A stretch of DNA of 64,000 nt from Macrostomum lignano. Its lineage: Eukaryota. Location of the stretch: assembly GCA_002269645.1 (NCBI GenBank), contig NIVC01001115.1, forward strand, positions 311,403 through 375,402. Direction: 5' to 3'. The notes under the pieces are model-generated. The model was not told where the DNA came from. It saw nothing but the letters and a program-made list of their open reading frames with translations, and ran no database searches. Made by a program: the position numbers and the translations under genes. Below, in pieces: positions 5,973 through 56,700 of this stretch. Positions within the stretch are counted from its first letter, which is position 1; the number at the start of each line of letters is the position of its first letter.

Positions 5973-13980
<8,008 letters not shown>

Positions 13981-15262: not shown

Positions 15263-15998
15263 NNNNNNNNNNNNNNNNNNNNNNNNNNNNNNNNNNNNNN
15301 NNNNNNNNNNNNNNNNNNNNNNNNNNNNNNNNNNNNNNNNNNNNNNNNNNNNNNNNNNNNNNNNNNNNNNNNNNNNNNNNNNNNNNNNNNNNNNNNNNNN
15401 NNNNNNNNNNNNNNNNNNNNNNNNNNNNNNNNNNNNNNNNNNNNNNNNNNNNNNNNNNNNNNNNNNNNNNNNNNNNNNNNNNNNNNNNNNNNNNNNNNNN
15501 NNNNNNNNNNNNNNNNNNNNNNNNNNNNNNNNNNNNNNNNNNNNNNNNNNNNNNNNNNNNNNNNNNNNNNNNNNNNNNNNNNNNNNNNNNNNNNNNNNNN
15601 NNNNNNNNNNNNNNNNNNNNNNNNNNNNNNNNNNNNNNNNNNNNNNNNNNNNNNNNNNNNNNNNNNNNNNNNNNNNNNNNNNNNNNNNNNNNNNNNNNNN
15701 NNNNNNNNNNNNNNNNNNNNNNNNNNNNNNNNNNNNNNNNNNNNNNNNNNNNNNNNNNNNNNNNNNNNNNNNNNNNNNNNNNNNNNNNNNNNNNNNNNNN
15801 NNNNNNNNNNNNNNNNNNNNNNNNNNNNNNNNNNNNNNNNNNNNNNNNNNNNNNNNNNNNNNNNNNNNNNNNNNNNNNNNNNNNNNNNNNNNNNNNNNNN
15901 NNNNNNNNNNNNNNNNNNNNNNNNNNNNNNNNNNNNNNNNNNNNNNNNNNNNNNNNNNNNNNNNNNNNNNNNNNNNNNNNNNNNNNNNNNNNNNNNNN
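15263..15998. other. Assembly gap (736 N)
   Basis: Run of N. Confidence 1.
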
Positions 15999-27430: not shown

Positions 27431-30400
27431 ATGACAGCCGTAGCTCCGTTGAACGACCCGCAACAGGAGCAGCAGCAGCAACAGGAGCAGCAGCAGCAAC
27501 AGGAGCAGCAGCAGCAACAGGAGCAGCAGCAGCAACAGGAGCAGCAGCAGCAACAGGAGAAGCAGCAGCCCTCTTTGGAATCTCGCAGAGCTTCTGTGGC
27601 AGCATCCGCAGCGGTTTTGCGTTCGTTGGCGCAGTCGCGAGCGTCTCTGCGCCGTCGTCAGTCGCAGGCGGCCGCCTCCGGTAGCCGGCCACAGTCGGCC
27701 AATCGAGTTCTGCTGCAGGCGCGTCGCGACGAGGAGCGCCAGTTCCGATGTCAGTTCTTTACCGCGGTCGGTCTGGCCGTCTTCGGCGCTGCTCTGTGCA
27801 TCACGGGAGTCGGTCTGGCGGCCTACGGCCTGCCGACGCAGGAACGGCTGAAGCAGGACTACGCTGGCTTAAGTGCGAGCGAACTTGTGCAGGTAATAAA
27901 AAGCCCAAGACTTTTGCAAGTTTTGTTCGCGCTGGGGACATATTTAGCAACACTATTTCGTCGCAAAGACATTGCTATCAATTCAAGTTTATAATGAATA
28001 TATCTTTGATACAGCTTACAAGTAAATCAATCTCTCAACAACGTTAACACCAAGTGTACCTAGCAATAACAACAACGACAATAACAAAAATATCAATAGC
28101 AACAACAACAACATACACTGTCCCCCAGTAAGTCAGTGGAGACAGCGTCAGATGGCACACCGAAGCGCCAGCGAGCGGACAAAGTCCGGCCTATTGACGG
28201 TGTCGAGCGCCTCAGCGTCGCTCAGGATGCAGTCCACGTATTTCCGTGGTCCTCGCTTGACATCACCTGAACAGTCCTGCCAGAGTGAGCAGCCTTCTAA
28301 CGCATCTGCAAAAGCGTATCAAAGAAACTCTATAAAATTCCTGTTTTAACTTCAAATTCAGGGTTGATAGTTACATGTTACATTTAGGCTATCCAAACTC
28401 GTGGGAATTAAGACTTCGAGGTTTCAAGATCGTGGTTAAGAACTTTCTACATAATTTTTTGTTTGCCAATTTTAATGCTATACAGATTTTATTAATCTGA
28501 AACATTCAGTGTTGGTGTTGGTTGAATTGGTTGAAATTACAAGCTTTAAACCTTGTAAAATTCATCGCAGGTTGAGGTCCGGCTAATGCTGTTCGGTCGT
28601 CTTGGCGGCCTCCTACTGGGCGCAGGTGTTTTCTTCATAGTGGTACTGCTAGTGATCGGGCTGGACTATAAGATTTACCTGGACAGACAGAAGCCGGTTG
28701 AAAACGTGGTGGCCGAAATGAATCGCCGTCTATACGCCAACATCATGCAGAATCTGCGCAAAGTGGCTTCAGACGATGACACGACAAGCCTGTCGACCAG
28801 CCACCGCTCATCTGACCGGCGATCGTCAATGGCCGTCACCCTTGTTAGTAAAAATGGCAGCATTGCTGGCGGAGACAGCAGCGTTGCTTTACGAATGTCG
28901 CGACCATCGACGGCATCAGGACAGCGACGAAATTCGCTAGTGAATGCGATTCAAAACGGTGGCAGGAGAAATTCTCTGCCGGTTAAGGAGCAGCAGCAAC
29001 GAATGCAGCTGAGTCCGACTTGGAAGGTTAATAATGCGTTCGACTTCTCAGATGAGTCGATTGAGCAGTTAAAAGATAATGAAAAGAGCGGAGGAGGCGG
29101 CGGCGGCGGCGGTATTGCATCGCTGGACGATCTGTTTAATCGAACTGCGAGTCCAAAGTCTCCGTTTCCCATGGAAGGCATCGCGGAGGAGGGCTCTGTC
29201 ACAACTAGTGCAGCACCAACTTCTGCAAGTGTCGCTGTTACAACAACAACAGCAACGATTACTGATGAAACAGCAACTAATAAGGCGGAGTCTACTCCAT
29301 CTGGTGGAAAAGAGCCTGTAACAACAGGGAAAACTAAGACCACGCCTGCTGATACAGAGACGACAGAAGCGCCGGTCGCAATGGAAGCTTCTAAGATTCA
29401 GCCGCAGCCGGCGAAGCATTCGGAAGAAAAGCAGAAACAACAGCAACAGAAACCGAAGGAATCTGGCACTTCTGTCGTTGGAAGTCGACCCACGACAGCT
29501 GCAGCCAGAAATCAGACCGCCACTGGAACTAGCCGACCGACGAGCGCTGCTTCAAGCAAACAAATGACAACTGCTACTACCGCAGCCAGTAGACAGACCT
29601 CAACGACGACTACTACTACAACTACAGTTAGCAGGCCAACAACTGCCGCAGCCAGCAGACCACCAACTGCCGCAGCCAACAGACCACCAATTGCCGCAGC
29701 CAGCAGACCACCAACTGCCGCAGCCAGCAGACCACCAACAGCCACAGCCAACAGACCACCAACTGCCGCAGCCAGCAGACCACCAACTGCCGCAGCCAAT
29801 AGACCACCAACTGCCGCAGCCAATAGACCACCAACTGCCGCAGCCAGCAGACCACCAACTGCCGCAGCCAGCAGACCACCAACAGCCACAGCCAACAGAC
29901 CACCAACTGCCGCAGCCAGCAGACCACCAACTGCCGCAGCCAATAGACCACCAACTGCCGCAGCCAGCAAAACCACGATTGCAAAAACTACAGCTGCTAG
30001 CAAACCTACAACTGCTTCTGACAGCAAGCAATCTTCGCAGCCAACGCAGGCGCAAGCGGGCGATGCAGCTTCACGTAGACCGCAGACTGTGGCAGCTCGG
30101 CAGGCACCAGTTGCTTCTGCTAGACAGAAAACTGCCTCCGGTCCATCTCGACAGCAACAACAGCAGACGCAGCGGCAAGCAGAACCACAGTCTCGACAGT
30201 CGCGTCCACCAACTGCATCGACGCAGGAACCGAAAGGAGCAGGACGCCCTGAAACAGGATTTTGTCGAGACTACACAATGGTGTTCGACAGTGATCACGA
30301 ATCGAACAGCGACAGTTCAGCAGCCTCAGACGAGGAGGTTCTGTATGATGAGCACGACAGCAAAGGTGGTGCCAGCAGTGCATCGCAAAACAATCTTAAC

Positions 30401-30742
30401 CGACCGGAAACGGAGAAGCCGCAGAAGGAAAAGCTTTGGCGAGAGGATACGACGGATGAGAACGCCTCCCAAGATCAGAGCATAATCGAAGAGATGACAA
30501 GGGAGATTTGTCGGAACTTCGAGCTGGACAATGTTGGCTCGAATTCCTCGAACGCGTCGAATAACCAGCGTCAGGCAAACACGGGCGGTGACTCCGGCTT
30601 CAGTGTTCAGGTGCACGTGCACGTGCATGTAAGCAAGAACAGTTCCCCGAATCGGCAGCAGCAGCAGCAGCAACAACAAGAACAACAAGAACCGCGATCG
30701 AAGCCAAACATGCTGGAATTTGAGCACGATGGAGCAATATAA
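27431..30742 (+). CDS. Unknown two-TM membrane protein (~877 aa) with a Q-rich N-terminus and a long disordered tail. Exons 27431-27892 and 28571-30742.
   Basis: The donor CAG|GTAATA at 27892 and acceptor TCGCAG|GTT at 28571 are both phase 0. Splicing joins TM1 (FFTAVGLAVFGAALCITGVGLAAYGL) to TM2 (LGGLLLGAGVFFIVVLLVIGL). The second exon has 723 open codons. Confidence 0.75.
28064..28305 (-). mobile_element. 5'-truncated RTE-like non-LTR retrotransposon fragment in an intron
   Basis: The minus frame LWQDCSGDVKRGPRKYVDCILSD..CAI* resembles the RTE C-terminal LW..RGRP..Y.D motif. A short 3' UTR and a (GTT)n tail follow. Confidence 0.55.
29635..29970 (+). repeat. Coding 24-bp repeat (AAASRPPT)n
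   Basis: In-frame tandem repeat inside the large exon. Confidence 0.93.
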
Positions 30743-31488
30743 TATTACAACTGCACTTACGAGTACTATTTAACACATACGCCCGTAAGAACTAGCTAAT
30801 TTTAACAGTACATTCATTAACTGTTTATGTGTACTTGTTCAAACTATTCGATCGAGTGAAAAGCTGTCATCAGTTCATTATTCCTGCCCCACAATTTTTG
30901 GCACATGTACAATTGTACATTACGTTTTCAGGCTCTGTAACATCATTAACATAGTTATAGCGGTCTAATGTCATGCTTTAATTCCTGTAAAAAACTATTT
31001 AGCTCATACATGTATTACAGTGGACATCAGGTTCAGCAAGCCCTAAAATTTTCTAAAACACTTCATTTGATTAATTGTACTTTTAATTCATGACATGACT
31101 ATAGGTGTATATTTTTAAGTACACAGTCAGTTCAGCGTTCAAAATCTGAGATGAGGACTGCAGTTTCTGTTCTGCTCAGCATGTTGCTGAAAATTAAACA
31201 CAAGTCTTTACTCAGCTCTTTGTGCTATAAAAATTAAGTCGAATTAAATATTAAATGATTTTGTTGCTGCCTCCTTATGTACTAAACATTTTACTTTATA
31301 CTTGTACGATCGTAAGATCGCAAGTCCACCAGGAGACTTGTCCTCTAGGGGTTCGGAGTGTTCATCTGGGGCTGGGGAGTCTGGGACTCAATACTGCGAA
31401 ACTTAGTGGACATGCGGTCATGAGAAGATGCAAATATCTGTGCGCTCTACTGCTAGTAGCAAGCGCTGGGTTTTCTCCTATTTGTGTA

Positions 31489-33708
31489 TGATGTAACCGC
31501 CCTTGTCGCCTGTCCGCTCCGTAGAGAGACGAACGCATGACTAGAGGGGGCAATGACCGTAGGCTGCCTATGACCGGGCAATGACCTGACGGACCTCCAG
31601 CACCAGACTGTCCCGCCCACATGATTAGTAGCTTTGGTAGCGCTTCGTGACCAGAGGGCCAAGGACCCACATGGACCCCACCTGTAGCCAAGGTGCAATA
31701 GTTGGTCACTCGGTCATAGTATGACCGAGTGGCTGCCACCACTCTATGTGACCTGGCGCACCTGGATCTTTCTACCAGACCTCTCGAGGCTAGAGCCCCG
31801 CCTGGATTGGTTACCAGGGGATTTAGGCTAACAGGGGAGACGCATGCAGCCGAGTACAGGGACTCTGCTTGGGGCATGATCGGGAACTCTGGGCTCAATC
31901 CTGGAGGATTTCTCAGCAGGAGATCCTTTGTGGCTGTGAGCGAGGCTGACTTGCGACTTTGATTACTAAGAGTAGTATGAGGCGAACATGTACTGTCTAC
32001 AGTTTAGATTGCTCAGGGCGAAGGGACGCGTTAGCATGGGGTGCAACCTTCCTACTGCCATTCTGTGCCAAGACTCGCTAATCCCTCTACTGCACGCACA
32101 CGCGGCCCCGCAGCACGCACTCACAGGCGGGCTTTGCACGGGGAGAGGCCATTAGCTTACCCAAACTTCCTTATGCTTTGCCACCCCGGGAGAAAGGCTT
32201 AGCAAGCCATGAGTGAAATGATGGTGAAAGATTGAATAATGATGAAGTTAGTTAATAGTTAATAATTAGGCCCTTAGGCAAATAGTCAGGCAATTAGGCG
32301 GCTTCACTATTGAGTAAAATACAGCAAAAGATACGGTATCACAATTGGCTCAGCTCTCTAATCAGACAATGGAAAATAGGCAAACCCCGGATAAGCAAAG
32401 GCAATTAGAGCACAAATTAGTAGCAGGAACTTACCGGCAGCTGCACAGAGAGAGAGAGAGGCGGAGTGACCGAGGGCGGCTGTAGGCTGCAGTCAGGCAG
32501 ACGGTGAAGCGGCGATGTGCTGGAGCGACGAGGCGCTGATGTAGATCAGGCGATGCTGATGATGCTGGGCGGTATCAGACCGCTGGCCGATAGGCGAGCT
32601 CACTTGGGGAGCTAAGGATAACTTGGCGGTAACAGACCGCGGGCCGGCAGGGATTCGTCTTATAGACGAATGGGTCAGAACTCAATCTGACAGCAAGTCC
32701 AAAGAAGGACGAGGAGAGGAACAGAGATAAACTCAGTTGAGTATTCTCATGCCGAAATCGCTTCCTTTTATAGACCTCACAGCCGCCTCCTCAAGGTCGT
32801 TACCATGGCTCCCTCTCTCTGATTGGCTGCCGGCAGAATGACGTCAGAATGAGTCATGATGAGAAGCATGAGACCGGCATAGCAACATGAGAAATAGGGA
32901 AATTGCGCAATCCGGAGGTGGGGTGGGGGATAATTGGCGCAGCGGGTGGTCGCGAAAGTGTTGCGCAAGCAACATTGAGAACAATAGGGCTGGGGTCGAG
33001 AACAAAGGAATTGGAAATCGGGGATAATTGGGGAAAACTGAGAACAATGGAAAAGTAAAATTGGAGAAAAGGTGATAATTAGGTGCGAAAACGAGAACAA
33101 AAGAAAGAGAAAATCGGAGAAAATGTGATAATTGGTGAGGGTCGAGAGAACAAAAGAAGCAAAAACGGGAACAATAGAAGCGGAGGTGGGGTGGGTGTCA
33201 CATGAGAAATTTGGGAAGGAGAACAATAGCGTGAGAAAAGGTTGCGCAAGAGAGGGGGATGAGTCATCGATGAGTCACCGAGGGGGAGAAGGGGTCACAC
33301 GACTTGCGTCACCGTTTGGGAGTTTGAGAGGGGATGGGGAGACGGTGAGCACACAAAGTACTGTACATGTAAGTAGACACAGGGAAAGAGGGGACAGCGC
33401 AGGAAAAGAGTGCAGAGGGAGACAAAAAAAGGGAGGAGGTAGAGAAAGTACAGGAAGAATAGGGCGGGAACAGAAGAGATAGGGTAGAGGGGGAGGTACA
33501 GAAAGGGGTAGGGGCTCCGGAAAGGCAGGTGTGGCGGCAGGAGAGACGGGACCAAGGCAGCAGGAGGGGTGCAGCAGAGCGGGAGTCTCCAGGCCCGGTC
33601 GGAGACCTGGCCGAGTCTCGACAGCTCTGTGCAGAGGGTGCACGGGATAGGAGGCACTTTCGAAAAAGTTCCCATGCCCTATCCCGCGACCAGAGCGTGG
33701 TTACATCA
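31489..33708 (-). repeat. 3' LTR (2220 bp)
   Basis: Direct repeat of 42435-44646 with 10-bp inverted termini TG..CA. Confidence 0.96.
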
Positions 33709-33725
33709 CACCCCCACTGCCTTTT
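33709..33725 (-). promoter_or_regulatory. Polypurine tract
   Basis: The minus strand reads AAAAGGCAGTGGGGGTG immediately before the 3' LTR. Confidence 0.75.
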
Positions 33726-34772
33726 GTGACGGAACTGGTTCCGTCATCATCACTGCCCAACATGGAACCACACAGACGGGAGCGGGATCTCAACCGAACG
33801 TGAAATCACAGAATTAACAAACCGCGAGCGGGAATGGAAAAGGCGATAAAATAGAGGGGATAGCAATAAATTCACAAAACGAGATACATAGGTTGGAGTG
33901 CAATACAGAATTTCAAAAATTTCAACTGTTGCTGTGGCTAAAGTGGGAGGGGGGAAACACAGACAGCGCAATAGTAGGGAGAAAAATAGCGAATTGTCAA
34001 CAATAAATTATCATAATTGGATAGAAGCGCAGCTGGGAAAGAGAGGAAACGGGGAAGGGTGAGGGAAGTGGGGAAAAAGAAGGGGGGAAGGGTTGCTAGC
34101 ACACAGCCAAGGGCAGAGCCTCGGGGAGAATGACAATTACACAGGGGAAAAATACTAATGCAGCGCAGTAAATTAATAAGCTAATTTCGCCGGGAGTTCA
34201 ACCGCACGGAGGCCTAGCGTCCTTGAAGGCTCGGACCCGCTTCAGCCAGTCAGAGGGCTTCGGGGCGATCGGTTGTAGGCTGGGAGGCGCCGCGCCGTGC
34301 GCTGGCCACTGTATAAAAGGCGCCACTGATAACGGGAGCCGGCTGCCTGCAACCTACACGGAGTCGCAGTTTCCAACCAAGGCACTCAGCGCGATTTTCC
34401 AAACTATACAACTACTCGGTAAGTCCCATCACCAACCTGATTTCCTTTCGCCTATACGTTAAACGAAATCTACCCACTCGCCATGCCTTTCGTTTTAAAC
34501 TGAGCCAATTGCAGTAATAATATACATGTATGGCCTTTCTTACGGTAAAAGTAGTGAGCAGCCAACACAGAGCCATTTTTAGGAATTTTTAGAATAATGA
34601 CACAACAATGACTCGTATATTGGTTATTAAAGTTTAAAAATGAATATTATGGAAGAACCGAATATTAATAGGATAATTTCACACACACACACACGACAAA
34701 CACACAACGCAAGGGGGCGGAAAGGCGGGTCGGACCGGCCGGCGGACGTCGCTCAGCAGGCAGTCAGCATCC

Positions 34773-36122
34773 TTACTCGAAATGGGCCTCTTGATTTAGC
34801 TGGTACGGGCCATATGCCGCCACCTGAGCCATGGCACTTGCCCATGCTTCCACATAACGTTGGGCTGCCGCGGCCGTGAGCACCACTCGGTGCCATCGGC
34901 TAGGCAAGATGTCGTTGCGCAGCACGCCCCTCAACTGCGGCAGAGTCGGGATGCCCAGGGCTTGGCATTGGACGACGAAGGCCGCATTCCGTACTTGTTG
35001 CAGCCGTGTCAGAGTTGGTGCAGACAGGGGCGGCTGCGCGATTGCAAAATGCTGCAAAGTGCCACGGGGCACCTCGGCCAGGCCCGCGTAGCCGGGCTCA
35101 ACGTCGCCCAGGGCCGCCAACACCCACCCACAGCGGCGATTGAACCGTTGCGAGAGAGTGGCGGCCCAGGCCACTGTGGCAAACGGCGCATAGAGGAGGG
35201 GCGCAGAGGCCGGCGCGGAGGCCGCAAGAATGCCGTCGTGGATGACGAGAGCCTCTTCCCATTCGGCGCCCTCGCTCAGGAAGCCCCAGAGCAGCCCTGG
35301 CAGGTCCGCAGGAAGCATGCCCCAGCGGCTGGCCAAGCTGGCCAGGCCAATCAATAGCCGGGCTCTCTGGGTTGGTGTCAGTTGTCTAGTCATCTGAGAG
35401 GAGGCTGCGCAGCTGATGATCACCTTCTTGTAGACCGGCCGATCGCAGGTGCTGAAGATTGCTGTGATGGGGGCACAGGACGGCGGCCGGGCTGTCAGGT
35501 GTGATGGTTCCTCATCCACAACCTTGCGGAGGAACTTGGCGGCCTGCCGGACTAGGTCGCCGAGGGCGTATTTGTAGGCGCTCTGGGCCGCTGCCTCGAT
35601 GTACATTAACAGCGTATTGTCAACCAATCCCAGCAGGGCCGCTTTTGACAGGATGAGCAGACAGGGCCGGTCCAGGTTGTCGCGAAGTTGGCGCTCTAGA
35701 GTCGCATGCCTGTCCTCGGCCTGGAGTGGGCCATGATAGGACTCAGGCCCGACCCAGTGCACCAGATCCATAGCTGTCGCCGAAGGTTCGCCAGCCACCT
35801 GACCCCAATCGACTTCTTCTCTTTGCAGGGCGATGTCCACACTTCGGCGGCTGTTGGGCAGAACATCACGCAGGCGGCGGGCCGCCTCGCCGAATTCGGC
35901 CGCCAGGTCCGAAATGTCCGCGGTGTCGCCCCCAGCATTGGCCGGGTCGATTGTCTCGTCACCTTCTTCGACCCTGGCGGAGGCCGCCGCTGGCGGCTCG
36001 GGGCCGTCCTCCGCCTCTTGGATGGCGTCACGGGGCCGCTTTCGGCTAACTGGGCTGGCAGGACGCTCAGACGGTAAGCTGGAGCATAGCTGAATTCGAT
36101 TGATGGTAGGCTTCGTGTCCAT
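34773..36122 (-). CDS. Orphan 449-aa protein in the env position of the LTR element
   Basis: An intact 1350-nt ORF with GC3-rich codons and an ATG downstream of its own CCAAT/TATA set. It has an acidic disordered N-terminus with RKRPR, and no signal peptide or obvious TM. Confidence 0.75.
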   Translation of the reverse strand: MDTKPTINRIQLCSSLPSERPASPVSRKRPRDAIQEAEDGPEPPAAASARVEEGDETIDPANAGGDTADISDLAAEFGEAARRLRDVLPNSRRSVDIALQREEVDWGQVAGEPSATAMDLVHWVGPESYHGPLQAEDRHATLERQLRDNLDRPCLLILSKAALLGLVDNTLLMYIEAAAQSAYKYALGDLVRQAAKFLRKVVDEEPSHLTARPPSCAPITAIFSTCDRPVYKKVIISCAASSQMTRQLTPTQRARLLIGLASLASRWGMLPADLPGLLWGFLSEGAEWEEALVIHDGILAASAPASAPLLYAPFATVAWAATLSQRFNRRCGWVLAALGDVEPGYAGLAEVPRGTLQHFAIAQPPLSAPTLTRLQQVRNAAFVVQCQALGIPTLPQLRGVLRNDILPSRWHRVVLTAAAAQRYVEAWASAMAQVAAYGPYQLNQEAHFE

Positions 36123-36189
36123 GTCAAGCTGGATAGTTCATAGAATGCTTCAGCGATTGAAGGACAGAATGATTTCTCTGATTGATGAT

Positions 36190-36360
36190 TTCCAGCTCTG
36201 GCAGGCGTGGGTCTTCTTATAGTGCCGGGGCTGGCTTCCCATTGGTTGAGCACATTGGGAGGCACACCTGCTGCGGCCGGGGTCGCCGTTGGCTTGGGAC
36301 CGCTCGCTCTAGTCTCCGTGCGCTCTGATTGGCTGGTTCCGCCGCTTCCTGTTTCCTCAC
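36190..36360 (-). promoter_or_regulatory. Internal promoter of the 449-aa ORF
   Basis: On the minus strand: GGAAACAGGAAG (36356-36345), CCAAT (36332-36328 and 36245-36241) and TATAAG (36221-36216), about 95 nt before the ATG. Confidence 0.6.
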
Positions 36361-38122
36361 CTGTGAGCAGGGGGCAGACCCGAGACCACCTCCGGTCGCG
36401 CCCGCGGCAGATCCGTACTCCAGCCGACAGAGATCGCACTCCCACCTCACATGCACACATTCAGATCAGGCACACAAATTAATTTGGTTAATATGAATAG
36501 AAGAGGGATTTGGGAGATTAGACTCCGGAGGATAAATGATGATGCGGCCCAACTCCCTTCGATTTCTTCCTTCAACGCCACGCGCACGCAGTTCTCATCC
36601 ATGCCTCCGAGACCCTCATAAACTTAACAGCCGAAAGAATTCGAAAGAGGAATTAATCATTAATTTGACTGCCACCAGTTTGATGTACTATTATAAAAGA
36701 GAAAGGGGAACCTACCACCATCTTGGCGCATTACCAAAGAAAAGAAAAGGAGGATCAGCCACCATTTTGAGAGAGGTTGCTAGGGAAAACTGCCACCAAT
36801 TGTACATTAACAGGGAAGAGAAAGAGGGAACCCGTCACCAATTAGAGTGGATTGCCCGGGGAAACTGCCACTATTTGCCCTTCTACCAGAGGAGAGGAAG
36901 ACGAAAAACTGCCATCCCTTAGAGGTGTATCATTAAAAGAAGGCGGGGAAGAAGGCTACCACTACTTGATCACCTAGAGCTCAAGGGAAGGAGAGGGAAT
37001 GAAGAAAGGAAGAAACCCCCAGGAAGGCCACTACCACACGCCATAAAGTTAAAATCCCCATCTATCTACATCCTAATACCCGGCTAGTTCCCTACTTCTA
37101 TTTCATCCCTTAAATCCTCATTTTCAGGATTCCGGCCGCTAGTAGCCGAGCCCATCCTTGAAGAGGAGTCCGACTACGAAGCGCCCGAAGACAGCCATTC
37201 AGAGCCGGACGCCCCCTCTGATTCTGGGCCGGCTGCGCCATCTGGTGACATAGGCGCCGCGGCTCCCGGGCCATGCGACCGCCGGGCCGCCAGCGAACCA
37301 GCGTCCGGGGCCGGTTGGCATCCGGTACCACCGCCGTTGTCAGCCCGAGCGCACGCTCCGCCGCCGGTCGCCGCGGTGACGCCCGTGGCTGCCGCTCCAC
37401 AGCCCTTGCCAACCCCTGTGGTGGAGACCGACGGCTCCTGGCATTTGGTCGTGCTGTCGACGGCCCTAATAGCCGGTCTCACAATGCACTGGCTACTGCT
37501 CTTGGAGCTATTTCTGCGGCTTCCCAACTGCTGATGCTGGTGGTTCTTAATGCTTACTTACTAATTCTGAACTATCTGTCCCCATAACTTGACTTTAATT
37601 ACTTACCTGACTTTACATTGACTAAACCACTGGCCTACTCTAAACTAATTGCTGCCCCATTTGCCTGATAAACTTAATTACATTGAATGCCCCCCCCCTA
37701 TTGCCTCATCGAAACCAATTAAAAGTTTCCCAAAATCGGACTTTCACAAAGTGTGAACAAACACACGAAATCAGACCTAAAGGTGCTAATTTCCTACGGT
37801 CCCAGACTTCCATTGTTCCCAGAAAATCTTGAACAGCGGGGCAGGACCTCCTGTGGAGCAGACCCATAGAAATTTTACTAGTTTCCAAGTTAATATTTAC
37901 TGATAGGGAATTAACGCATACTGTACGGGCCTAATTTTCGAGCTAAAATCTTAGATATTTAAACAACACCAACGAGCACGAGGTCACAACATAAATTCGA
38001 GTAATAGAGGGCATACGTAAATACGCGAAAAGCGGTCTCCAACGGGGCAACACGAGCAAAATTTCGACACGCGAATCGGGGGGGGGAATTAAGCAATCAC
38101 TGGCTAGCTACCGATCTGTTAC

Positions 38123-38647
38123 TCAGCGGGGGTCGAATGGGAGACTCACACCTAGCAAGTAAACCTTTTCTGTTCGATAGTCTATGATAGCATGCGTACT
38201 GGCTAGAAAAGCACTACCCAGGAGGGAAACTGCTGCTGAATTGCCAACGACCAGAAAGAGGATTCTCACCTCTTCTAGCCCAATAACTGCTGTGAGGGTG
38301 GCCTGGCCTAGCATCTCTAATTCATTGCCCGTGTAGGACACGGCCTTCACACATGGGGGCTCCAGGGCCTCCACACTCTGTCCGGTAATTTTAGTAAAGT
38401 CTTTGACTGTTAGCAAAGACAGCGCACTGCCCCCATCTACCAGGAGGCGGGTGGGAACATTCTCAATTGGCAACTCTACAACAATATCTCTCCCGCGTTG
38501 TCCTCTAGCTGGTCTTGGCTGATAGAAATCGGGTACCTTCTCAAATCTAAACTTCTTGCTGGGCGGACGTGGCAGGTTAAGCTGGGCCCTAGAGAGGGAA
38601 CGGGGCTGAGTTCGGGCCGGGCCATTCAGCCCTCCCACGGGTTTCCC
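38123..38647 (-). CDS. Retroviral-type aspartic protease in the -1 frame of gag, ending in a stop
   Basis: The motifs LLVDGGSALSLL, SYTGNELEMLG and LLGSAFL..HAIIDY are present. Slippery heptamer G GGA AAC at 38647-38641 lies just before the gag stop. Confidence 0.85.
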   Translation of the reverse strand, partial: GKPVGGLNGPARTQPRSLSRAQLNLPRPPSKKFRFEKVPDFYQPRPARGQRGRDIVVELPIENVPTRLLVDGGSALSLLTVKDFTKITGQSVEALEPPCVKAVSYTGNELEMLGQATLTAVIGLEEVRILFLVVGNSAAVSLLGSAFLASTHAIIDYRTEKVYLLGVSLPFDPR

Positions 38648-39961
38648 GAACCCGGGGGCTCTTCAGGCGTGGAAGGAGGAGGCATCAGAGCTTGCGCGCG
38701 CAGCTGGGCGAGCCTCTCCTGCCTCTCCCTGGTAGCCTCGTCTAACATATCTCTGCCCCACTCCTCTAAATCTTGCCTATGGCGATCAGGTGGCGCACGA
38801 AGCTGCAATTGCTGCTGCTGCACACCCGGCGCCGGCGGCGTGGGCGCCTCCTGAATTGCAAGCGGCGGGGGCTGGGGTTGGCGCCAGTTCCTACTGCTAT
38901 TAGAGCCGCCCTGCCCCTGCCTCCAGTTCCTGTTGGGAGTGGCGGGGCGAGGGGGCCTCATCTGCTGGGGCAGCTGGGCAACAGACTCTGCTGTCGCCTT
39001 CATAGTTTCATTGAGCTGCACCAGCTGGTTGCGCAGATCCTTTTGCGTTTGCTCTAGCGCGCCCAACCTCTCTTGCATCTCTGATAGGCCGTCACCGTCC
39101 TCCTCCGTCTCGTCAGCTTCCTGGTTCACCATCCTGACCCACTTGCGAGGGGGCCTGGGTGGCTGCTGAGGTTGCAGACGGACTTCGGTGCGGGACTCAG
39201 ACCTGGGCGGGCCACTACTGTCCCATTTCCCGGCTAAGTCTGCGGCTTCTAACAGGGCTTGCTGCTGTTCTAACACCTGCTCAATTGTCTGCCAGCGACG
39301 GCTCAACAGATCTTGTCTGACCTGGCGGGGGAGCTTAGCGTGTTCCAAGTAGGTGTACACGATTTCTTGTTCTCTCTGCTCACCCTGAATCTGAGGAAAC
39401 ATGGCCGTTATCTGAGATCTTATCATAGCAGCAAAAGCACTATGTGATTGGCCGGGTTTCTGGCTCAGATTCTTCAGCTTATTTCTCTTAGCCAGATCAG
39501 TGTTGGCCTCGCCCAACTGCTCTCCTAATCTAGATACGAACTGCTCAAAGGGCAATTGCCCGTCCAATCCTAAGGCTAAGTTCTGAAATTCACCTGGGAG
39601 GTGCGAGATGAGCACCTGCTTCCTAGCCTGATCTCCTACAGTTCTCTCCGCGTCCAGCTTGTAGATCATTCTCTCTACCCATTGCACAAAACAGTGTTCG
39701 CCGGGAGAGAACTTCTCTACGTAGATTTTCGGCCTCTGGGTCTTGGCCCATGTTTAGCTGGTTAAACGCATTGGCTATAGCGGCAACTAAGTCTCCTAGC
39801 TGCGGGACTGCCTGAGGAGGATTCTGGGCTGCGTCCGGGGGAGCAGCGGCGGCTGCTGCGCCACCCTGATTGGGAGCGGGAGCTGCTACTCCTTCATCTG
39901 GTTCCTCAACTACTACTGCTTCTGGAGGCTGAGGGACCTGGTTACCAGCGGCTGCGGCCAT
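38626..39961 (-). CDS. Gag of the large LTR element, with one frameshift near 39740 (possibly a sequencing indel)
   Basis: The ATG is at 39961. After the shift the frame reads RPKIYVEKFSPGEHCFVQWVERM, includes the MHR-like LSQKPGQSHSAF, has a coiled-coil, Pro/Gln-rich C-terminus and no CCHC knuckle. Confidence 0.8.
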
Positions 39962-42413
39962 TGCGGCTGGGGGCGGCAACTGCTGGGGTGTCAGCGGCCG
40001 AGGGTGGTTGACCAGGGGCGTCTGCGCACACAGCTTCTACGACCCTATCTCCACGCGCCCGTGACATGTGAATGCCGGATAGCTGGGGGAGTACCACCGG
40101 GAAGGAAAAGAAAAGAAAACCGGGGCAACTACAGGTAAAGACCGAAAAGTTGATCCGAAACACACAAACACACTCACACACACACAAACACAGACAAAAC
40201 TCACACACTTGCGGCGTCGAAGAAAACAAATTGAAAAACGGGTGGCTCCACATAATTCCATTTAGGCAGTCCTAACGGCTTCACTCGGCAAAGCACACTG
40301 ACTCAAACTGCGGCTACCACTACCAGTTGTCTATGGCACATCCTGACAGGGAAAAATTGGCTATTCAGAGAGACTTGACCTTCATTTTGCGGCCATGCTA
40401 GGGAACCCAAATGCCGACCGTAAACGGACTTACGGCACCTGTACAAATTCTCCCCTAGGGTTGCGCGCCGGGCCCCATTTCCTTAAGAAAGCTACTACGA
40501 AGAAGCGTTGGCGCCTGGACCCAAAAACCCAAGTGGCGGGAGCAATCCCCATGGAGGTCCTCCCACTTTACTGCCCTTGCACAGCCGGAAAACCGTCGGA
40601 GTCCAGTGGGGCTTCCACCTCAGGACTACCAATCTTGTACACGCAGCTTCACAAAAGGCGGGAATCCAGCTCCCCTACGTCTAGCAGAATCCACAAAAAC
40701 CAAGACCTCCCCTTCTGTTCAGAGCGAAGGCGCGCAGCGGGAGTCCAGACTAAACTGTCCCGAAGTTTTCAGGTTAGGCGGATTACAAGCCTGAAACTCT
40801 CGCCCGCTTTCCTAGGATAAACAGACCTAAGTGAGTATCTTCCTGAAATGCTTGCCCCTCCGATACTCCACCTTTGCTGCAGCTCGAAATAGCATACTTG
40901 GGACCTTTATCTGATGGCGGAGAAAGTCCTACAGTTGTCAGCCTCTCCACTTTACTGTACTTGAACGCCCGGTTCTACCAGGAGACAGCGGTACCTCCAT
41001 CTAGGTTATTCCAAGTTGCCAGAGACGTCAACCCGTCTTATTGACCTTGCGGGGCACTGGGGTGGCACTCTATGTACCGGGGCTTTACATTAGGGGACTG
41101 CATGCAACCCTGCGTCTAAGCGCTTAGTGGGCTGCAGTGGCCAGAGGGGAAAAGAGTTGCGCAATAGCGCCTTCCTGGGCCAGGCTGACAAGTCGGGCAG
41201 GAGCGCCGTTCTACCGGGTCGGGCTGATTGGCACACCCACCTCCCCTATCAGACTGACAGCAGGGGGGAGGAATTACTAAAGGAGGAGAATGCAGCAGGA
41301 AACATTACGAGATCACTGGGGGCCACCAGACTTCCAGTACACCATTCCAATACTCACTGAACTCCACTATCAATAGGATACTATGGGATCTACTATTTCC
41401 AGCCACTGCACCAGCCCAAATGCAACCAAAGCAGTTACTACCGGGTCTGCAATACAGTGGGGAGAGTCAGCAGACACGTTGGGATCGAATCCCAGCCATG
41501 AAGGCACCAGGGGTTACCGCAGAATTCAGGTCCGGGCTGATCGCAGGTATTCCATAGGAGGTGACACTTTTTTTAGCCCGAGATTTTTGAGTCACACTGA
41601 TACCCTACAGAGATACAATCACACCGCTATTCCCATTCCTGCGAGACTTTGGTATCCCCCAATGTTTCCAAGGCCATGACTACTGCTTCCCTTACTATGC
41701 ATATATAGCGAGTTCCCCATAGCCCTTGATAGCTGTTCATTCTAATGGACAAACAAAACACGCTCCGGTCTCTACGCATTTCTAGGATTAACTGAGCGAT
41801 CAGGGAGAGCGACTGTTACACTCCCCCGAGTAAAAGAAAGAGGTAGGACAAAGGAAAGAAATGCTTCGCTTCCAGCTTCCCTGTGCTTGCGTGATGAGGC
41901 TTCCGTACCTGGCTGGCTGTCCACCTCAACACTCACACAGTTCTGCTGTAGGCTAGGCGAGAGAAAGAAAGGGAGGGGAAATAAAGCATATTACCATGAA
42001 ATAGAAAGTGAGTCCGGAAAATTCACTTTCGCAGTTCTTCACACACTCCGTTACCAGGTAGCTATTCTGATTGTAATCAAATCCGCTCGTCTACCACTTC
42101 ACACTTTCTAGCGCTGAAACTGATCGGCTAAATTAATTTTAAATTGAATCAGGGGCTTTTGGCGAATGAATGAATTTGGAAATTTCGAATGAATTGAACG
42201 AATTCGCAGCCCGAAAAATTTGAAAAGTTACATTAATATTTTTGGATTTTGTTGCCTCACGCCATGGGAGAAGAGAATGACGATTGGCGATTTTTACGAT
42301 TGGTAGATTTAGACATGGCACTCTTTGCGCTTCGGCCACCATTCTGAGGGATGCCACAGGTGCGCTTGTCACATCTAAACCACCAGTCCGAAACTCAGCG
42401 CTGTTTGCACCAG

Positions 42414-42431
42414 ATCCCACCGCTGCCACCA
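42414..42431 (-). promoter_or_regulatory. Primer-binding site complementary to the tRNA-Leu 3' end
   Basis: The minus strand reads TGGTGGCAGCGGTGGGAT, 3 nt inside the LTR. This is the 18-nt complement of the tRNA-Leu(AAG/TAG) end ATCCCACCGCTGCCA-CCA. Confidence 0.9.
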
Positions 42432-42434
42432 TTT

Positions 42435-44646
42435 TGATGTAACCGCCCTTGTCGCCTGTCCGCTCCGTAGAGAGACGAACGCATGACTAGAGGGGGCAAT
42501 GACCGTAGGCTGCCTATGACCGGGCAATGACCTGACGGACCTCCAGCACCAGACTGTCCCGCCCACATGATTAGTAGCTTTGGTAGCGCTTCGTGACCAG
42601 AGGGCCAAGGACCCACATGGACCCCACCTGTAGCCAAGGTGCAATAGTTGGTCACTCGGTCATAGTATGACCGAGTGGCTGCCACCACTCTATGTGACCT
42701 GGCGCACCTGGATCTTTCTACCAGACCTCTCGAGGCTAGAGCCCCGCCTGGATTGGTTACCAGGGGATTTAGGCTAACAGGGGAGACGCATGCAGCCGAG
42801 TACAGGGACTCTGCTTGGGGCATGATCGGGAACTCTGGGCTCAATCCTGGAGGATTTCTCAGCAGGGGATCCTTTGTGGCTGTGAGCGAGGCTGACTTGC
42901 GACTTTGATTACTAAGAGTAGTATGAGGCGAACATGTACTGTCTACAGTTTAGATTGCTCAGGGCGAAGGGACGCGTTAGCATGGGGTTGCAACCTTCCT
43001 ACTGCCATTCTGTGCCAAGACTCGCTAATCCCTCTACTGCACGCACACGCGGCCCCGCAGCACGCACTCACAGGCGGGCTTTGCACGGGGAGAGGCCATT
43101 AGCTTACCCAAACTTCCTTATGCTTTGCCACCCGGGAGAAAGGCTTAGCAAGCCATGAGTGAAATGATGGTGAAAGATTGAATAATGATGAAGTTAGTTA
43201 ATAGTTAATAATTAGGCCCTTAGGCAAATAAGCAGGCAATTAGGCGGCTTCACTATTGAGTAAAATACAGCAAAAGATACGGTATCACAATTGGCTCAGC
43301 TCTCTAATCAGACAATGGAAAATAGGCAAACCCCGGATAAGCAAAGGCAATTAGAGCACAAATTAGTAGCAGGAACTTACCGGCAGCTGCACAGAGAGAG
43401 AGAGAGGCGGAGTGACCGAGGGCGGCTGTAGGCTGCAGTCAGGCAGACGGTGAAGCGGCGATGCGCTGGAGCGACGAGGCGCTGATGTAGATCAGGCGAT
43501 GCTGATGATGCTGGGCGGTATCAGACCGCTGGCCGATAGGCGAGCTCACTTGGGGAGCTAAGGATAACTTGGCGGTAACAGACGCGGCCGGCAGGGATTC
43601 GTCTTATAGACGAATGGGTCAGAACTCAATCTGACAGCAAGTCCAAAGAAGGACGAGGAGAGGAACAGAGATAAACTCAGTTGAGTATTCTCATGCCGAA
43701 ATCGCTTCCTTTTATAGACCTCACAGCGCCTCCTCAAGGTCGTTACCATGGCTCCCTCTCTCTGATTGGCTGCCGGCAGAATGACGTCAGAATGAGTCAT
43801 GATGAGAAGCATGAGACCGGCATAGCAACATGAGAAATCGGGAAATTGCGCAATCCGGAGGTGGGTGGGGGATAATTGGCGCAGCGGGTGGTCGCGAAAG
43901 TGTTGCGCAAGCAAACATTGAGAACAATAGGGCTGGGGTCGAGAACAAAGGAATTGGAAATCGGGGATAATTGGGGAAAACTGAGAACAATGGAAAAGTA
44001 AACATTGGAGAAAAGGTGATAATTAGGTGCGAAAACGAGAACAAAAGAAAGAGAAAATCGGAGAAAATGTGATAATTGGTGGGGGTCGAGAGAACAAAAG
44101 AAGCAAAAACGAGAACAATAGAAGCGGAGGTGGGGTGGGTGTCACATGAGAAATTTGGGAAGGAGAACAATAGCGTGAGAAAAGGTTGCGCAAGAGAGGG
44201 GGATGAGTCATCGATGAGTCACGAGGGGGAGAAGGGGTCACACGACTTGCGTCACCGTTTGGGAGTTTGAGAGGGGATGGGGAGACGGTGAGCACACAAA
44301 GTACTGTAAGTAGACACAGGGAAAGAGGGGACAGCGCAGGAAAAGAGTGCAGAGGGAGACAAAAAAAAGGGAGGAGGTAGAGAAAGTACAGGAAGAATAG
44401 GGCGGGAACAGAAGAGATAGGGTAGAGGGGGAGGTACAGAAAGGGGTAGGGGCTCCGGAAAGGCAGGTGTGGCGGCAGGAGAGACGGGACCAAGGCAGCA
44501 GGAGGGGTGCAGCAGAGCGGGAGTCTCCAGGCCCGGTCGGAGACCTGGCCGAGTCTCGACAGCTCTGTGCAGAGGGTGCACGGGATAGGAGGCACTTTCG
44601 AAAAAGTTCCCATGCCCTATCCCGCGACCAGAGCGTGGTTACATCA
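42435..44646 (-). repeat. 5' LTR (2212 bp)
   Basis: Direct repeat of 31489-33708 with only a handful of substitutions and small indels seen by eye. Confidence 0.96.
43710..43799 (-). promoter_or_regulatory. LTR U3 promoter: AP-1, CRE, CCAAT and TATA
   Basis: TGAGTCA 43793-43799, TGACGTCA 43782-43789, CCAAT near 43765 and TATAAAA 43716-43710. The same set is in the other LTR at 32766-32856. Confidence 0.7.
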
Positions 44647-45517
44647 TGTATCTCAATATTTGTGCCCCTTTCCTTCCTCAGACGCTTGACAGATTTTGAC
44701 AAGCTATTGGTTTTGTCGTAGAAACTGAAAGTACAGTAAAATACATTATCATTGGTGGGTTACATTTAGCTTTAATAGAAATCCGATTCTGAAAGAGCTG
44801 GTTTGGTAAGCTATACAGTTTGCACCGATTCCCCGTATGTACTGCAGCAATCCGACGTAGGCGATGTTGCATCAATATGTACTTTTACATTGGGTGGGAA
44901 GGTTCTTGTACATTCACCGACATTCAGTGCGATACAGTGCAATTCTTTCCAGTTTTTCGAGTGGACTGGCATTGAGTTCCTGTCATAATCTAGCTAATAT
45001 CTAGCATAATCTAGCATAGGTACGAGTACACAGTAGTGAAATTGACAGGGAAGATTTTCGATGCTTCTAGCTTTTTGATACAACTGAAATACAATTAATC
45101 ATAATTTGAAAGATAATGGAATTAAGGGGTTGGTAGGTTACTTTATTGCAGCTACTTTAAATCGATATCAAGATTAAAAGATTTTTTAAAATTGTCATAA
45201 ACTTTTCTTAACTTAAGTGTACTCAAGTATTTGGACATCCCTTTTTGGGGTATCAATGAATGAAATTTGATCTCGAATTTTCGTAGTCTATGGTAAAACA
45301 AGTTCCAACCAAGTATGCTTTTACAAGGTATCACCCCCATGGACTGATTTTTCTGGCCCACGTACAAGACTCAGGACTGCGTTGATTTGTCTGTGGGCCA
45401 GATTGATTTAGTTTTCTTTTACGCTTTCGTACTTTTATAATTTCGTAACAGTAACGCAACAATATTCGACTTGTTAGTTTAGTTCATTCAATCAGACGAC
45501 GTTTTACTTTTTCCAAG

Positions 45518-53773: not shown

Positions 53774-56700
53774 ATGCAGCAGCAGAGTTCAGAGTTGCAG
53801 GCACAGCAGCTGGCACCGCCACCTCCGCCCAAGCGTCGGTACTGGAGCAACAGGTTGGATTACATCAAACGAATCGCTCTGCCAGCACTGATGAAGCTGC
53901 CAAATTCTTGGCCATTCAAGACTCCGGTTGATCCGGTGAAGCTGGGCATACCAGACTATCCCAGGATAGTGCTGAAGCCCATGGATCTGGGGACGGTTAA
54001 AAATCGATTGAATAGCGGCAAGTTCTACCAACGCGGCCAAGACTGCATAGACGATATCAATAGCATCTTTTTAAACTGCTTCATATTTAACAGGCCAGGA
54101 GAAGATGTGGTTCTGATGGCTGAAGCTGTTGAGGCTGTGTTTCGCGATAAAATGCGCCATTGCCCGGCTAATGAGCTGGAGATCCATAGCGGCACGTCCA
54201 GCGGTCACCACCACCGAGTGCACGATCAGCACTCGGCTGTTGTGAAGCGCAAGGCCGTGTCACTCGGCGGTACAGCGACCTCCATGTCTGGTCTGTCATC
54301 GATGCAGGCGATCAAGAAGCCCAAGCTGACGCCGCCTCCGACGCCGTCGCCCGCGTCTTTGGCTTCAACAAATGGCGTTAGCGGCGTCAGCGCCGCGTCA
54401 CTGCTGAGCGCCAATTTGCCTGAGCGAATGCGCCCATGCGCCCAGCTGTTGAAAGAGTTGACTACAGTTAAATTGCAGGTAAGCAATCAGAACTGCACGA
54501 AAGTACAGTACGTACTTAAGATTGGCAACTCATTTTCTGAAGAAAAACATTTATAAGGCTGGCTTTATTGCCGGTTATTTATCTGCCGACCCTAACAAAA
54601 AGCTCCTAACAAATTATCCCAAACCGTAGTTATCCCAATCCCGATTATCCCAAACCCTAGTTATCCCAATCCCGATTATCCCAAACCGTAGTTATCCCAA
54701 TCCCGATTATACCAAACCCTAGTTATCCCAATCCCGATTATCCCAAACCCTAGTTATCCCAATCCCAATTATGCCAAACCGTAGTTATCCCAATCCCGAT
54801 TAACCCAAACCCTAGTTATCCCAATACCGATTATCCCAAACCCTAGTTATCCCAATCCCAATTATCCCAAACCCTAGTTATCCCAATCCCGATTATCCCA
54901 AACCGTAGTTATCCCAATCCCGATTATCCCAAACCCTAGTTATCCCAATCCCGATTATCCCAAACCCTAGTTATCCCAATCCCAATTATGCCAAACCGTA
55001 GTTATCCCAATCCCGATTAACCCAAACCCTAGTTATCCCAATCCCGATTATCCCAAACCCTAGTTATCCCAATCCCAATTATCCCAAACCGTAGTTATCC
55101 CAATCCCGATTATACCAAACCCTTATTATCCCAACCCCAACTATCCCAAACCCTAGTTATCCCAATCCCGATTATCCCAAACCCTAGTTATCCCAATCCC
55201 GATTATCCCAAACCCTTATTATCCCAACCCCAACTATCCCAAACCCTTATTATCCCAACCCCCAATTATGCCAACCCCAATGATCCCAAACACTAATTAT
55301 CATAAACCAGAATTATCTCAAAGCACGTTTTTTCGTATTTTTTATTGTTCAGTTCCTAAAGAGGTATCTATATGTCTGGCTAAGTGTAAAGTGTTTGGGA
55401 AAATTAGGGTTTTGGATAATCATGGCTTAGGATAATTTCAGATTGGAATAATTAGGGTTTGGGATAACTACAATTGGGATAATCAGGGTTTGTGATAACT
55501 ACAATTGGGATAATCAGGGTTTGGAGTAATTGTGGTTGGGATAGTTAGGGTTTGGGATAAATAAGGTTAGGGCTAAATAGGGTTTAATATAATTAGGAGT
55601 TCAGATAATTATGGTTTGGGATAGATAAGGTTTGGGATAATTAGGGTTTAATATAATTAGGAGTTGAGATAATTATGGTTTGGGATAGATAAGGTTTGGG
55701 ATAATTAGGGTTTTGAATAATAAGGGACTTCTATAATTCAGGTTTGAGATTGATTTAAGGAACCAATTTAAATTGCCTACTAATATGATCGCCCTACAAT
55801 TCTACATGAATGCTAAATTATTATAATAAACATCGCTCTGGTTTATATTTATTAAGCGCTTTGCGGCTACTTAAAGTAACAAGTAAGAAAATTACTCGCT
55901 ATTTTCCAAAACGCAGGCCATCAGCTGGCCCTTCCTGGAGCCCGTAGACGTTGTGGGCCTTGGCCTGACAGACTACTTGGACATTGTCAGCCATCCTATG
56001 GACTTGTCCACTATGCGGAAAAAGTTGGAGTCCGGTAGCTACTCAGAGCCTGAGCAGTTCGCCTCGGACTTTCGACTAATGCTGGACAACTGCTTCAAGT
56101 ACAACCCGTCTCAATCTGAGGTGCACCGGCTGGGCAAGGAGTTGCTCAAATATTTTAATGAGAATTTTCCTAAAATGTGCTCCGGAGTGCAGCAGAAGCA
56201 ACAGACACAGGTCAAGCAGCAACCAAAACTGCAGCAGCAGCCGCAGGTGCCCGCAAAGCTGCCACCGACTCCAGCGGTGCCGCCTTCGCCAGCCACCCTT
56301 GCTGCCTCGCCAGCTGACATGGCGAGGGTCCGCGAGCTGTCCATGCGAGTTGAGGACCTGTTTGCTCAGGTTTGACCTGCGGTCTGTTGGATCCCCAGTT
56401 GCTGGGCCAGCCTCCCAGATCCTCAGTTGCTGGGCCAGCCTCCCAGATCCTCAGTTGCTGGGTCAGCCTCCCAGATCCTCAGTTGCTGGGCCAGCCTCCC
56501 AGAGTGTCAGTTGCTGGGCCAGCCTCCCAGATCCTCAGTTGCTGGGCCAGCCTCCCAGATCCTCAGTTGCTGGGCCAGCCTCCCAGATCCTCAGTTGCTG
56601 GGCCAGCCTTCCAACCATCTGTCTCGGCCTCAAGCCGTCCGATTTCAGAGCCACAACTCCCACCCCTCATTCCAGATGAAGTCCTGCGTAGACGATATCC

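Follow-up and report, generated by a model that had tools for sequence, protein, structure and literature searches.

A conserved 449-codon open reading frame and an overlapping spliced antisense gene in a young LTR retrotransposon of Macrostomum lignano

Structure of the LTR element and its surroundings

The window, the whole stretch of 64,000 nt analysed here, whose internal positions serve as coordinates throughout, contained an LTR retrotransposon of 13158 bp, recognised by its LTR pair when the window was compared with itself. The gag-like and protease frames and the 449-aa accessory ORF all lie on its minus strand. The 5′ LTR (42435..44646, minus strand, 2212 bp) has a 10-bp terminal inverted repeat, an NF-Y box at 43771 and a TATA box at 43716, and the 3′ LTR (31489..33708, minus strand, 2220 bp) was 98.97% identical to it in the self-comparison. 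In addition to LTRs with TG..CA ends, the element has the other hallmarks of an LTR retrotransposon, namely a primer binding site (PBS) of 18 nt, 3 nt past the 5′ LTR (42414..42431, minus strand), a polypurine tract (33709..33725, minus strand) and a 4-bp target-site duplication, TACA, on both sides (31485-31488 and 44647-44650). We tentatively take the PBS to be that of tRNA-Leu. The element is young and recently inserted.

A gag-like ORF, so labelled from its position, was found at 38626..39961 (minus strand), split in the window into two frames by a break near 39740. The profile scan gave it no family match, and a word-index homolog search, a search of low sensitivity, was blank. Near 39740 all four sequencing runs compared show short indels relative to the window, and several of them also depart from it at isolated positions of the 5′ LTR (42435-44646). 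Errors of assembly may therefore account for some breaks, and the true identity of the LTRs may exceed 99%. Towards the end of the gag frame a GGGAAAC heptamer (38641..38647, minus strand) is followed by a predicted stem-loop; presumably it is a slippery heptamer for a -1 frameshift into the protease frame. The latter (38123..38662, minus strand) is terminated by a stop at 38123 and matches retroviral-like aspartic protease 1 (E 2e-7). Its active-site motif (38429-38437, minus strand) reads D-G-G, where aspartic proteases usually have D-[ST]-G, and its activity is uncertain. Among 60 interior stop-free segments of at least 60 aa, a single one, the protease (E 0.021), matched a TE family at E<=0.05; reverse transcriptase (RT), RNase H and integrase were absent, and the interval from the protease to the 449-aa ORF is only 2 kb. 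The element is therefore non-autonomous.

The LTR family may be Ty3/Gypsy-like. Compared with the Osvaldo lineage, the 2.2-kb LTRs and the 4-bp target-site duplication fit, and the PBS, if it is that of tRNA-Leu, would differ from the tRNA-Lys type. That lineage is described as having LTRs of 1-2 kb, mostly 4-bp target-site duplications and a tRNA-Lys PBS (PMC3286476).

Several minor features of the element were also recorded. The U5 part of both LTRs contains an ATG frame of 142-171 codons (42395-42823 and 31362-31877, minus strand). The leader between the PBS and gag is 2.4 kb long (39962-42413, minus strand), with acceptor-like sites before gag and donor-like sites in the LTR (43381 and 43108); none of the 13 splice joints listed for the four runs led from the LTR donors into this leader. 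On the sense strand both LTRs lack an A[AT]TAAA poly(A) signal, and the sole one in the element, scanned over 33700-44650, is at 37599. Rfam gave no matches across 31000-45500, and no canonical heat-shock element was found in the LTR or in either of the internal promoters described below.

The surroundings of the insertion include BET-family bromodomain/ET exons (53774-57518, plus strand) and a BPTF-like PHD exon (60676-61527, minus strand), neighbours that indicate an animal genome. Low-complexity ORFs at 27431-30742 (plus strand) end about 750 bp before the insertion. An AGAT microsatellite array of 8 kb and about 2000 copies (5974-13980) is one of 42 tandem-repeat rows, and the window has a gap of 736 Ns at 15263-15998.

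The 449-aa open reading frame and its protein family

The accessory ORF (34773..36122, minus strand) runs from an ATG at 36122 to a TAA at 34773 with no internal stop. As first noticed, it is an intact frame in the env slot: the protease stop (38123) lies on one side of it and the edge of the 3′ LTR (33708) on the other, and it shares its strand with gag and protease. The other five frames of the region have 9-14 stops each. An open frame of at least 440 codons arose in none of 5000 base shuffles and in four of 2000 order-2 Markov simulations. The GC content of the ORF is 64%, as against 29-50% in its flanks, and, shortly ahead of the stop codon, climbs from some 30% to more than 60%. By codon position the ORF (GC1/GC2/GC3 0.69/0.51/0.71) is close both to gag (0.64/0.44/0.64) and to an exon of the host BET neighbour (0.70/0.54/0.73).

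The ORF had been called an orphan, a description that no longer holds. When 1.84 billion representative proteins were scanned in full with HMMER, three matched its product (P0001). Two were unnamed Logan proteins, P0002 (40% identity over 176 aa, E 2.8e-21) and P0004 (40% identity over 100 aa, E 6e-5). The third, a bacterial TPR protein (P0003, E 8e-14), was rejected as a chance match whose score is inflated by seven repeats of one 40-aa stretch. A member of the cluster of P0002, P0005, is 437 aa long from Met to end, is 33% identical to P0001 over 341 aa (E 6e-42) and has the same layout: a poorly conserved N-terminal tail of about 100 aa, with KRPR in P0001, then a conserved and mostly helical body (aa 103-433 of P0001). 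Identity between the two rises from 9 of 50 positions at aa 51-100 to 21-22 of 50 at aa 251-350, and the residues kept best are Pro (13/23), Trp (5/9), Gly (10/19) and Leu (23/45). That two intact proteins have diverged so far points to long purifying selection, and the ORF is very probably a real, selected gene. Its homologs come from unnamed contigs and may or may not belong to LTR elements.

Annotated families gave no counterpart. Pfam (E<=10), PHROGs and NCBIfam returned no families for any of the four family sequences, PDB profile searches gave no significant match (best E 0.97-1.8), the ESM Atlas gave no usable match for P0001 or P0005, and scans of viral, metagenome and prokaryote contigs detected no relative. 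Word-index homolog searches were blank for P0001 and for the alignment A1, whose own members are in the collection searched, so this result reflects low sensitivity and not absence. Nor did Pfam and TE-family scans of the ORF find a known TE domain, which supports the first interpretation. A structure model from the four-sequence alignment was mostly helical with a few strands, though at pLDDT 44.6 it is too poor for fold assignment. Low-confidence models searched against BFVD and the PDB yielded nothing at E<=0.001, the best hits (Z 6.3 and 8.3) being generic helical proteins, and no known fold was recognised.

The protein features first noticed were borne out in part. The RKRPR motif is present at aa 27-31, and Ala and Leu make up 123 of the 449 residues of the Leu/Ala-rich product. 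By hydropathy, the sole measure used, no signal peptide is apparent, the best 11-residue value in the first 30 aa being 0.48 in P0001 and 0.34 in P0005. Neither protein has a signal peptide-like stretch, a C-terminal transmembrane (TM) anchor, an RX[KR]R furin site or an N-X-S/T site, and the view that the product is not an env stands. Two claims held in part. The absence of a TM segment is borderline, as the best 19-residue window reaches 1.71 at aa 154-172, while the best window of P0005 (1.45) lies elsewhere. The motif read as NLS-like does fit K[KR]x[KR] through KRPR in P0001, but the strict pattern is absent from P0005, whose start has only a looser basic stretch. The suggested likeness of one segment to helix 3 of the cyclin box gained no support: none of the four sequences matched a Pfam family at E<=10, no cyclin appeared in the PDB profile searches, and the segment is a conserved helix of this protein family itself. 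As for the cyclin fold, the structure models (pLDDT 37 and 45) were too poor to exclude it.

The foremost rival account of the ORF is capture from an unsampled virus, for instance of a helical nucleocapsid-like or a DNA-virus protein, which would now be a component of the particle, with a structural or RNA-binding task, or would act as a decoy against viruses, and would not be a nuclear regulator. Its GC excess over the flanks, intronless frame, size and mainly helical model are compatible with such an origin, and the ORF3s of rotifer LTR elements are described as captured genes, for a viral glycoprotein and for enzymes (PMC5408684). However, gag and the host exons have a similar GC3, so composition does not mark the ORF as foreign, and it carries a promoter-like set of its own instead of being fused to gag. 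We consider viral capture fairly unlikely, and prefer to read the ORF as an old accessory gene of the LTR family.

Candidate internal promoter, antisense gene and variation among sequencing runs

Upstream of the ORF, a compact ETS-CCAAT-CCAAT-TATA set had been proposed as its own promoter. The candidate promoter (36215..36351, minus strand) comprises an ETS-like core at 36351, NF-Y boxes at 36334 and 36247, an extra CCAAT box at 36258 and TATAAGA at 36221. The three CCAAT pentamers begin at 36332, 36258 and 36245, and two of them have the full NF-Y consensus. Two NF-Y boxes in the 250 bp upstream occurred in 6 of 5000 dinucleotide shuffles, and two together with TATAA in none of 5000, figures that flatter the set as its motifs were chosen after being seen. 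The NF-Y pair thus goes beyond chance. The other parts of the proposal fared less well: an ETS core occurred in 1437 of 5000 shuffles and is not significant, and TATAAGA misses the strict pattern TATA[AT]A[AG], which the TATA box of the LTR meets. The internal and LTR promoters have a 13-nt NF-Y word in common. The main ATG (36122) is in a strong context and is preceded by a uORF of five codons in a weak context (36124..36141, minus strand), which ends one base before it. A sense mRNA probably starts at an internal site, expected near 36190, served by this candidate promoter. Just upstream of the set, 240 nt before the ATG, is a splice-acceptor-like site (36361..36377, minus strand).

On the opposite strand, contigs from the sequencing runs define a gene of three exons with a TATA box of its own. 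The stretch 34312..34418 (plus strand) holds the TATA box TATAAAAG at 34312 and exon 1, whose donor is at 34419. Exon 2 (35829..36073, plus strand) has an ATG at 35833 and overlaps codons 17-98 of the 449-aa ORF. Exon 3 (37128..37723, plus strand) is in frame with exon 2, with a stop at 37532-37534 and ATTAAA at 37718. The GT..AG joint 34418/35829 was found in run X15 and the joint 36073/37128 in X2 and X15, each with 28 letters on its short side and in runs whose RNA status is a guess. Neither joint was found in the DNA-like run X13 or in X11, one of the three runs guessed to be RNA. The donors fit the consensus, reading G|GTAAGT and G|GTAAGC, and each acceptor consists of a pyrimidine tract closed by CAG.

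From the ATG at 35833 the frame crosses the joint of exons 2 and 3 and ends at 37534, giving a predicted product of 215 aa with a charge of +7 in its first 20 aa, an acidic and Pro-rich middle and, at aa 187-206, a hydrophobic helix (2.02) followed by nine residues. The exon 3 frame was open in 1252 of 20000 shuffles and is by itself weak evidence, and its peptide had no matches in the PDB profile search. Exon 2 overlaps the least conserved part of the 449-aa ORF; poor conservation of an overlapped stretch is expected for overprinting. On balance, translation of the predicted antisense frame is slightly favoured.

Of 24 runs listed for the same organism, 20, from eight studies, contain 0.88-0.94 of the sampled words; none of the 20 is entered as RNA on record, and one of them may be the source of the assembly. 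Four of the 20 were compared over 33712-44650, three guessed to be RNA and one, X13, guessed to be DNA. The frame is intact in their long contigs. A record of X11 covers 34784-36672 with one other letter and no gaps, and records of X13 cover 34648-35826 and 35839-36518 without gaps. The X2 and X15 records have six gaps, which by the X11 record would fall in 34441-34765, outside the ORF. Among the rows listed, two substitutions affect the ORF, L73M in three of the four runs and M118R in one, both non-synonymous, a point against the explanation preferred below, though M118 of P0001 aligns with an Arg in P0005. In two RNA-like runs contig depth rises across the body of the ORF, and it is far higher over the LTR, but depth can neither rank parts nor give copy number and carries no weight here; the contigs give neither strand nor transcript start.

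Runs X13 and X15 each have a contig that links position 34516 directly to 36605, with the intervening letters not given. These contigs skip a block of 2088 bp (34517..36604) that holds the promoter, the ORF and antisense exon 2, and indicate that relatives without the ORF exist. No direct or inverted repeat and no poly-A relic was found at the block edges. A nested DNA transposon was considered and rejected, as no target-site duplication or inverted repeat was visible by eye.

This variant, seen in two of the four runs, would suit a second rival, in which the ORF is transduced host cargo, a retro-copied member of a host gene family peculiar to the lineage, which travels in this subfamily together with its promoter and is dispensable to the element; that the homologs come from unnamed contigs, with no context given, is also compatible with it. 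We judge it improbable. A retro-copy would not normally carry upstream promoter boxes, the block edges lack the expected relics, and the N-terminus of the ORF is interlocked with an antisense gene whose other exons sit outside the block.

A proposed nuclear accessory function and comparison with known systems

The explanation we prefer, tentatively and with slightly less than even confidence, is that the ORF is an internally promoted accessory gene of a Gypsy-like family, acting in the nucleus on the RNA of its own family and faced by a convergent antisense gene. The ORF would be an old and selected gene of a Ty3/Gypsy-like LTR family, now carried by a young non-autonomous member. The LTR would transcribe a genomic RNA that yields Gag and Gag-protease, and RT and integrase would be borrowed in trans from a partner, an arrangement already put forward for wheat Quinta (PMC11302176). 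A separate sense mRNA would start at the internal NF-Y/TATA promoter and run into the 3′ LTR, so that the level of the ORF would be uncoupled from that of the genomic RNA. The product may be soluble and for the most part helical, with a basic, flexible tail at its N-terminus. The case for a nuclear location is about evenly balanced. In the nucleus it would act on expression of its own family, through transcription, export of unspliced genomic RNA or anti-silencing; functional models are CERV (PMC10309623), factors of the Rec/Rev type and GENE23 of maize Grande (PMC7264820). Export factors of the CERV or Rev kind are nuclear proteins that bind the genomic RNA and are required for it to be exported. 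Such a regulatory role, argued by analogy, is possible but rather doubtful. The convergent antisense unit may tune the sense gene by RNA overlap, and its 215-aa protein, with a hydrophobic tail, may be membrane-anchored.

Expression might instead follow the route of an env gene, on a spliced mRNA in which one of two LTR donors, 43381 or 43108, is joined to the 36361 acceptor, with the CCAAT boxes incidental. The donor-like LTR sites and the acceptor-like site ahead of the ATG would permit this, and CERV and env-like ORFs are described as using spliced mRNAs (PMC10309623, PMC7264820). Yet no such joint is among the 13 listed, which do include the antisense joints, the route would add two more upstream ATGs (36255 and 36242), and the NF-Y pair is improbable by chance. 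We hold this route to be quite improbable and retain the internal start site.

Least probable is that the two products form a selfish pair, working as poison and antidote or at the membrane, to the advantage of cells or offspring that carry the element: two interlocked genes with separate promoters in a young enzyme-less element, one product having a basic N-terminus and a hydrophobic C-terminal helix, recall such a pair, but a variant lacks the 449-aa ORF and the antisense start codon together, and antisense-RNA regulation accounts for the layout more simply.

Extra ORFs in LTR elements, in the env slot as well, are already known from plants, rotifers, nematodes and flies, as the sources cited here describe. 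The closest in kind are the 3′ additional ORFs of plants (maize Grande gene23, rice RIRE2 and Retand TRP28), described as lying between pol and the 3′ LTR, with a promoter of their own and no database match (PMC7264820; PMC11963269). According to these sources they likewise occupy the same slot, have been given a proposed nuclear role and are carried by non-autonomous members. Those with their own promoters are described as antisense, whereas in this element, from an animal, a sense gene is overlapped by a spliced antisense one. Pfam scans for TRP28/Transposase_28, the Retand type, gave no match for the ORF or, scanned separately, for the segments with antisense exons 2 and 3. In animals, CERV is a novel non-env protein of the C. 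elegans Gypsy element Cer1 (PMC10309623). Its mRNA is described as spliced and Cer1 as autonomous, and the 449-aa protein is likened to it by description only. The ORF3s of bdelloid rotifer LTR elements, also non-env ORFs in the env slot, encode DEDDy, GDSL and fusion proteins (PMC5408684). These are described as recognisable enzymes or glycoproteins, whereas the 449-aa ORF matches no Pfam family.

Gag-only elements, TR-GAG (PMC4350172) and wheat Quinta (PMC11302176), are reported to keep gag without RT or integrase and still to move. The present element is not itself a TR-GAG: those are described as shorter than 4 kb with a single gag ORF (PMC4350172), whereas it measures 13158 bp, has at least three ORFs and carries, over its 13.2 kb, a protease and two further genes. 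For the antisense product, the sORF2/FAST-like proteins of MDG1 elements offer a comparison, being membrane-helix accessory proteins of env-less Gypsy elements. The criteria given for them are a length of 60-210 aa, an MGxxxS/T start, an ectodomain of 10-50 aa and a polybasic stretch after the TM segment (bioRxiv 10.1101/2025.03.14.642691). The antisense product is not of this type as so described, having 215 aa, no Gly-2 or MGxxxS/T and a C-terminal helix with nine residues after it.

In complex retroviruses, HTLV-1 Tax/Rex and HBZ form a sense/antisense accessory pair. The element resembles HTLV-1 in having a spliced antisense gene opposite accessory genes in its 3′ region, and differs in lacking env and pol and in its antisense promoter, which is internal and about 600 bp from the LTR; the likeness is one of layout, not sequence. 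The antisense promoter of such systems is also mentioned in PMC7264820.

Among the open literature, searched mostly at the level of listings, no description was found of this protein family or of an overlapping pair of sense and spliced antisense genes in an animal Gypsy element. We know of barely any transposon-encoded counter-measures against silencing or RNA-export control in animals. In the boldest reading, which we consider unlikely though worth stating, the element carries a cassette like that of a complex retrovirus in an animal Gypsy-type lineage, with two internally promoted, convergent and overlapping genes: one for a new family, possibly with a new fold, that counters silencing or drives RNA export, the other, spliced and antisense, for a membrane protein anchored by its tail. 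By supplying both products to an autonomous partner, the enzyme-less element would spread.

A young element thus bears a conserved, unannotated protein family with a spliced antisense partner, and with 20 runs from eight studies at hand its start sites, protein location and response to knock-down are directly testable. Annotation pipelines anchored on RT, such as that described in PMC12801592, would not start from such an enzyme-less element. Diverged contigs and loose ends, near the protease end at 38061-38154 and 38444-38456 and upstream of the promoter at 36424-36701, point to related subfamilies or else to an autonomous partner.
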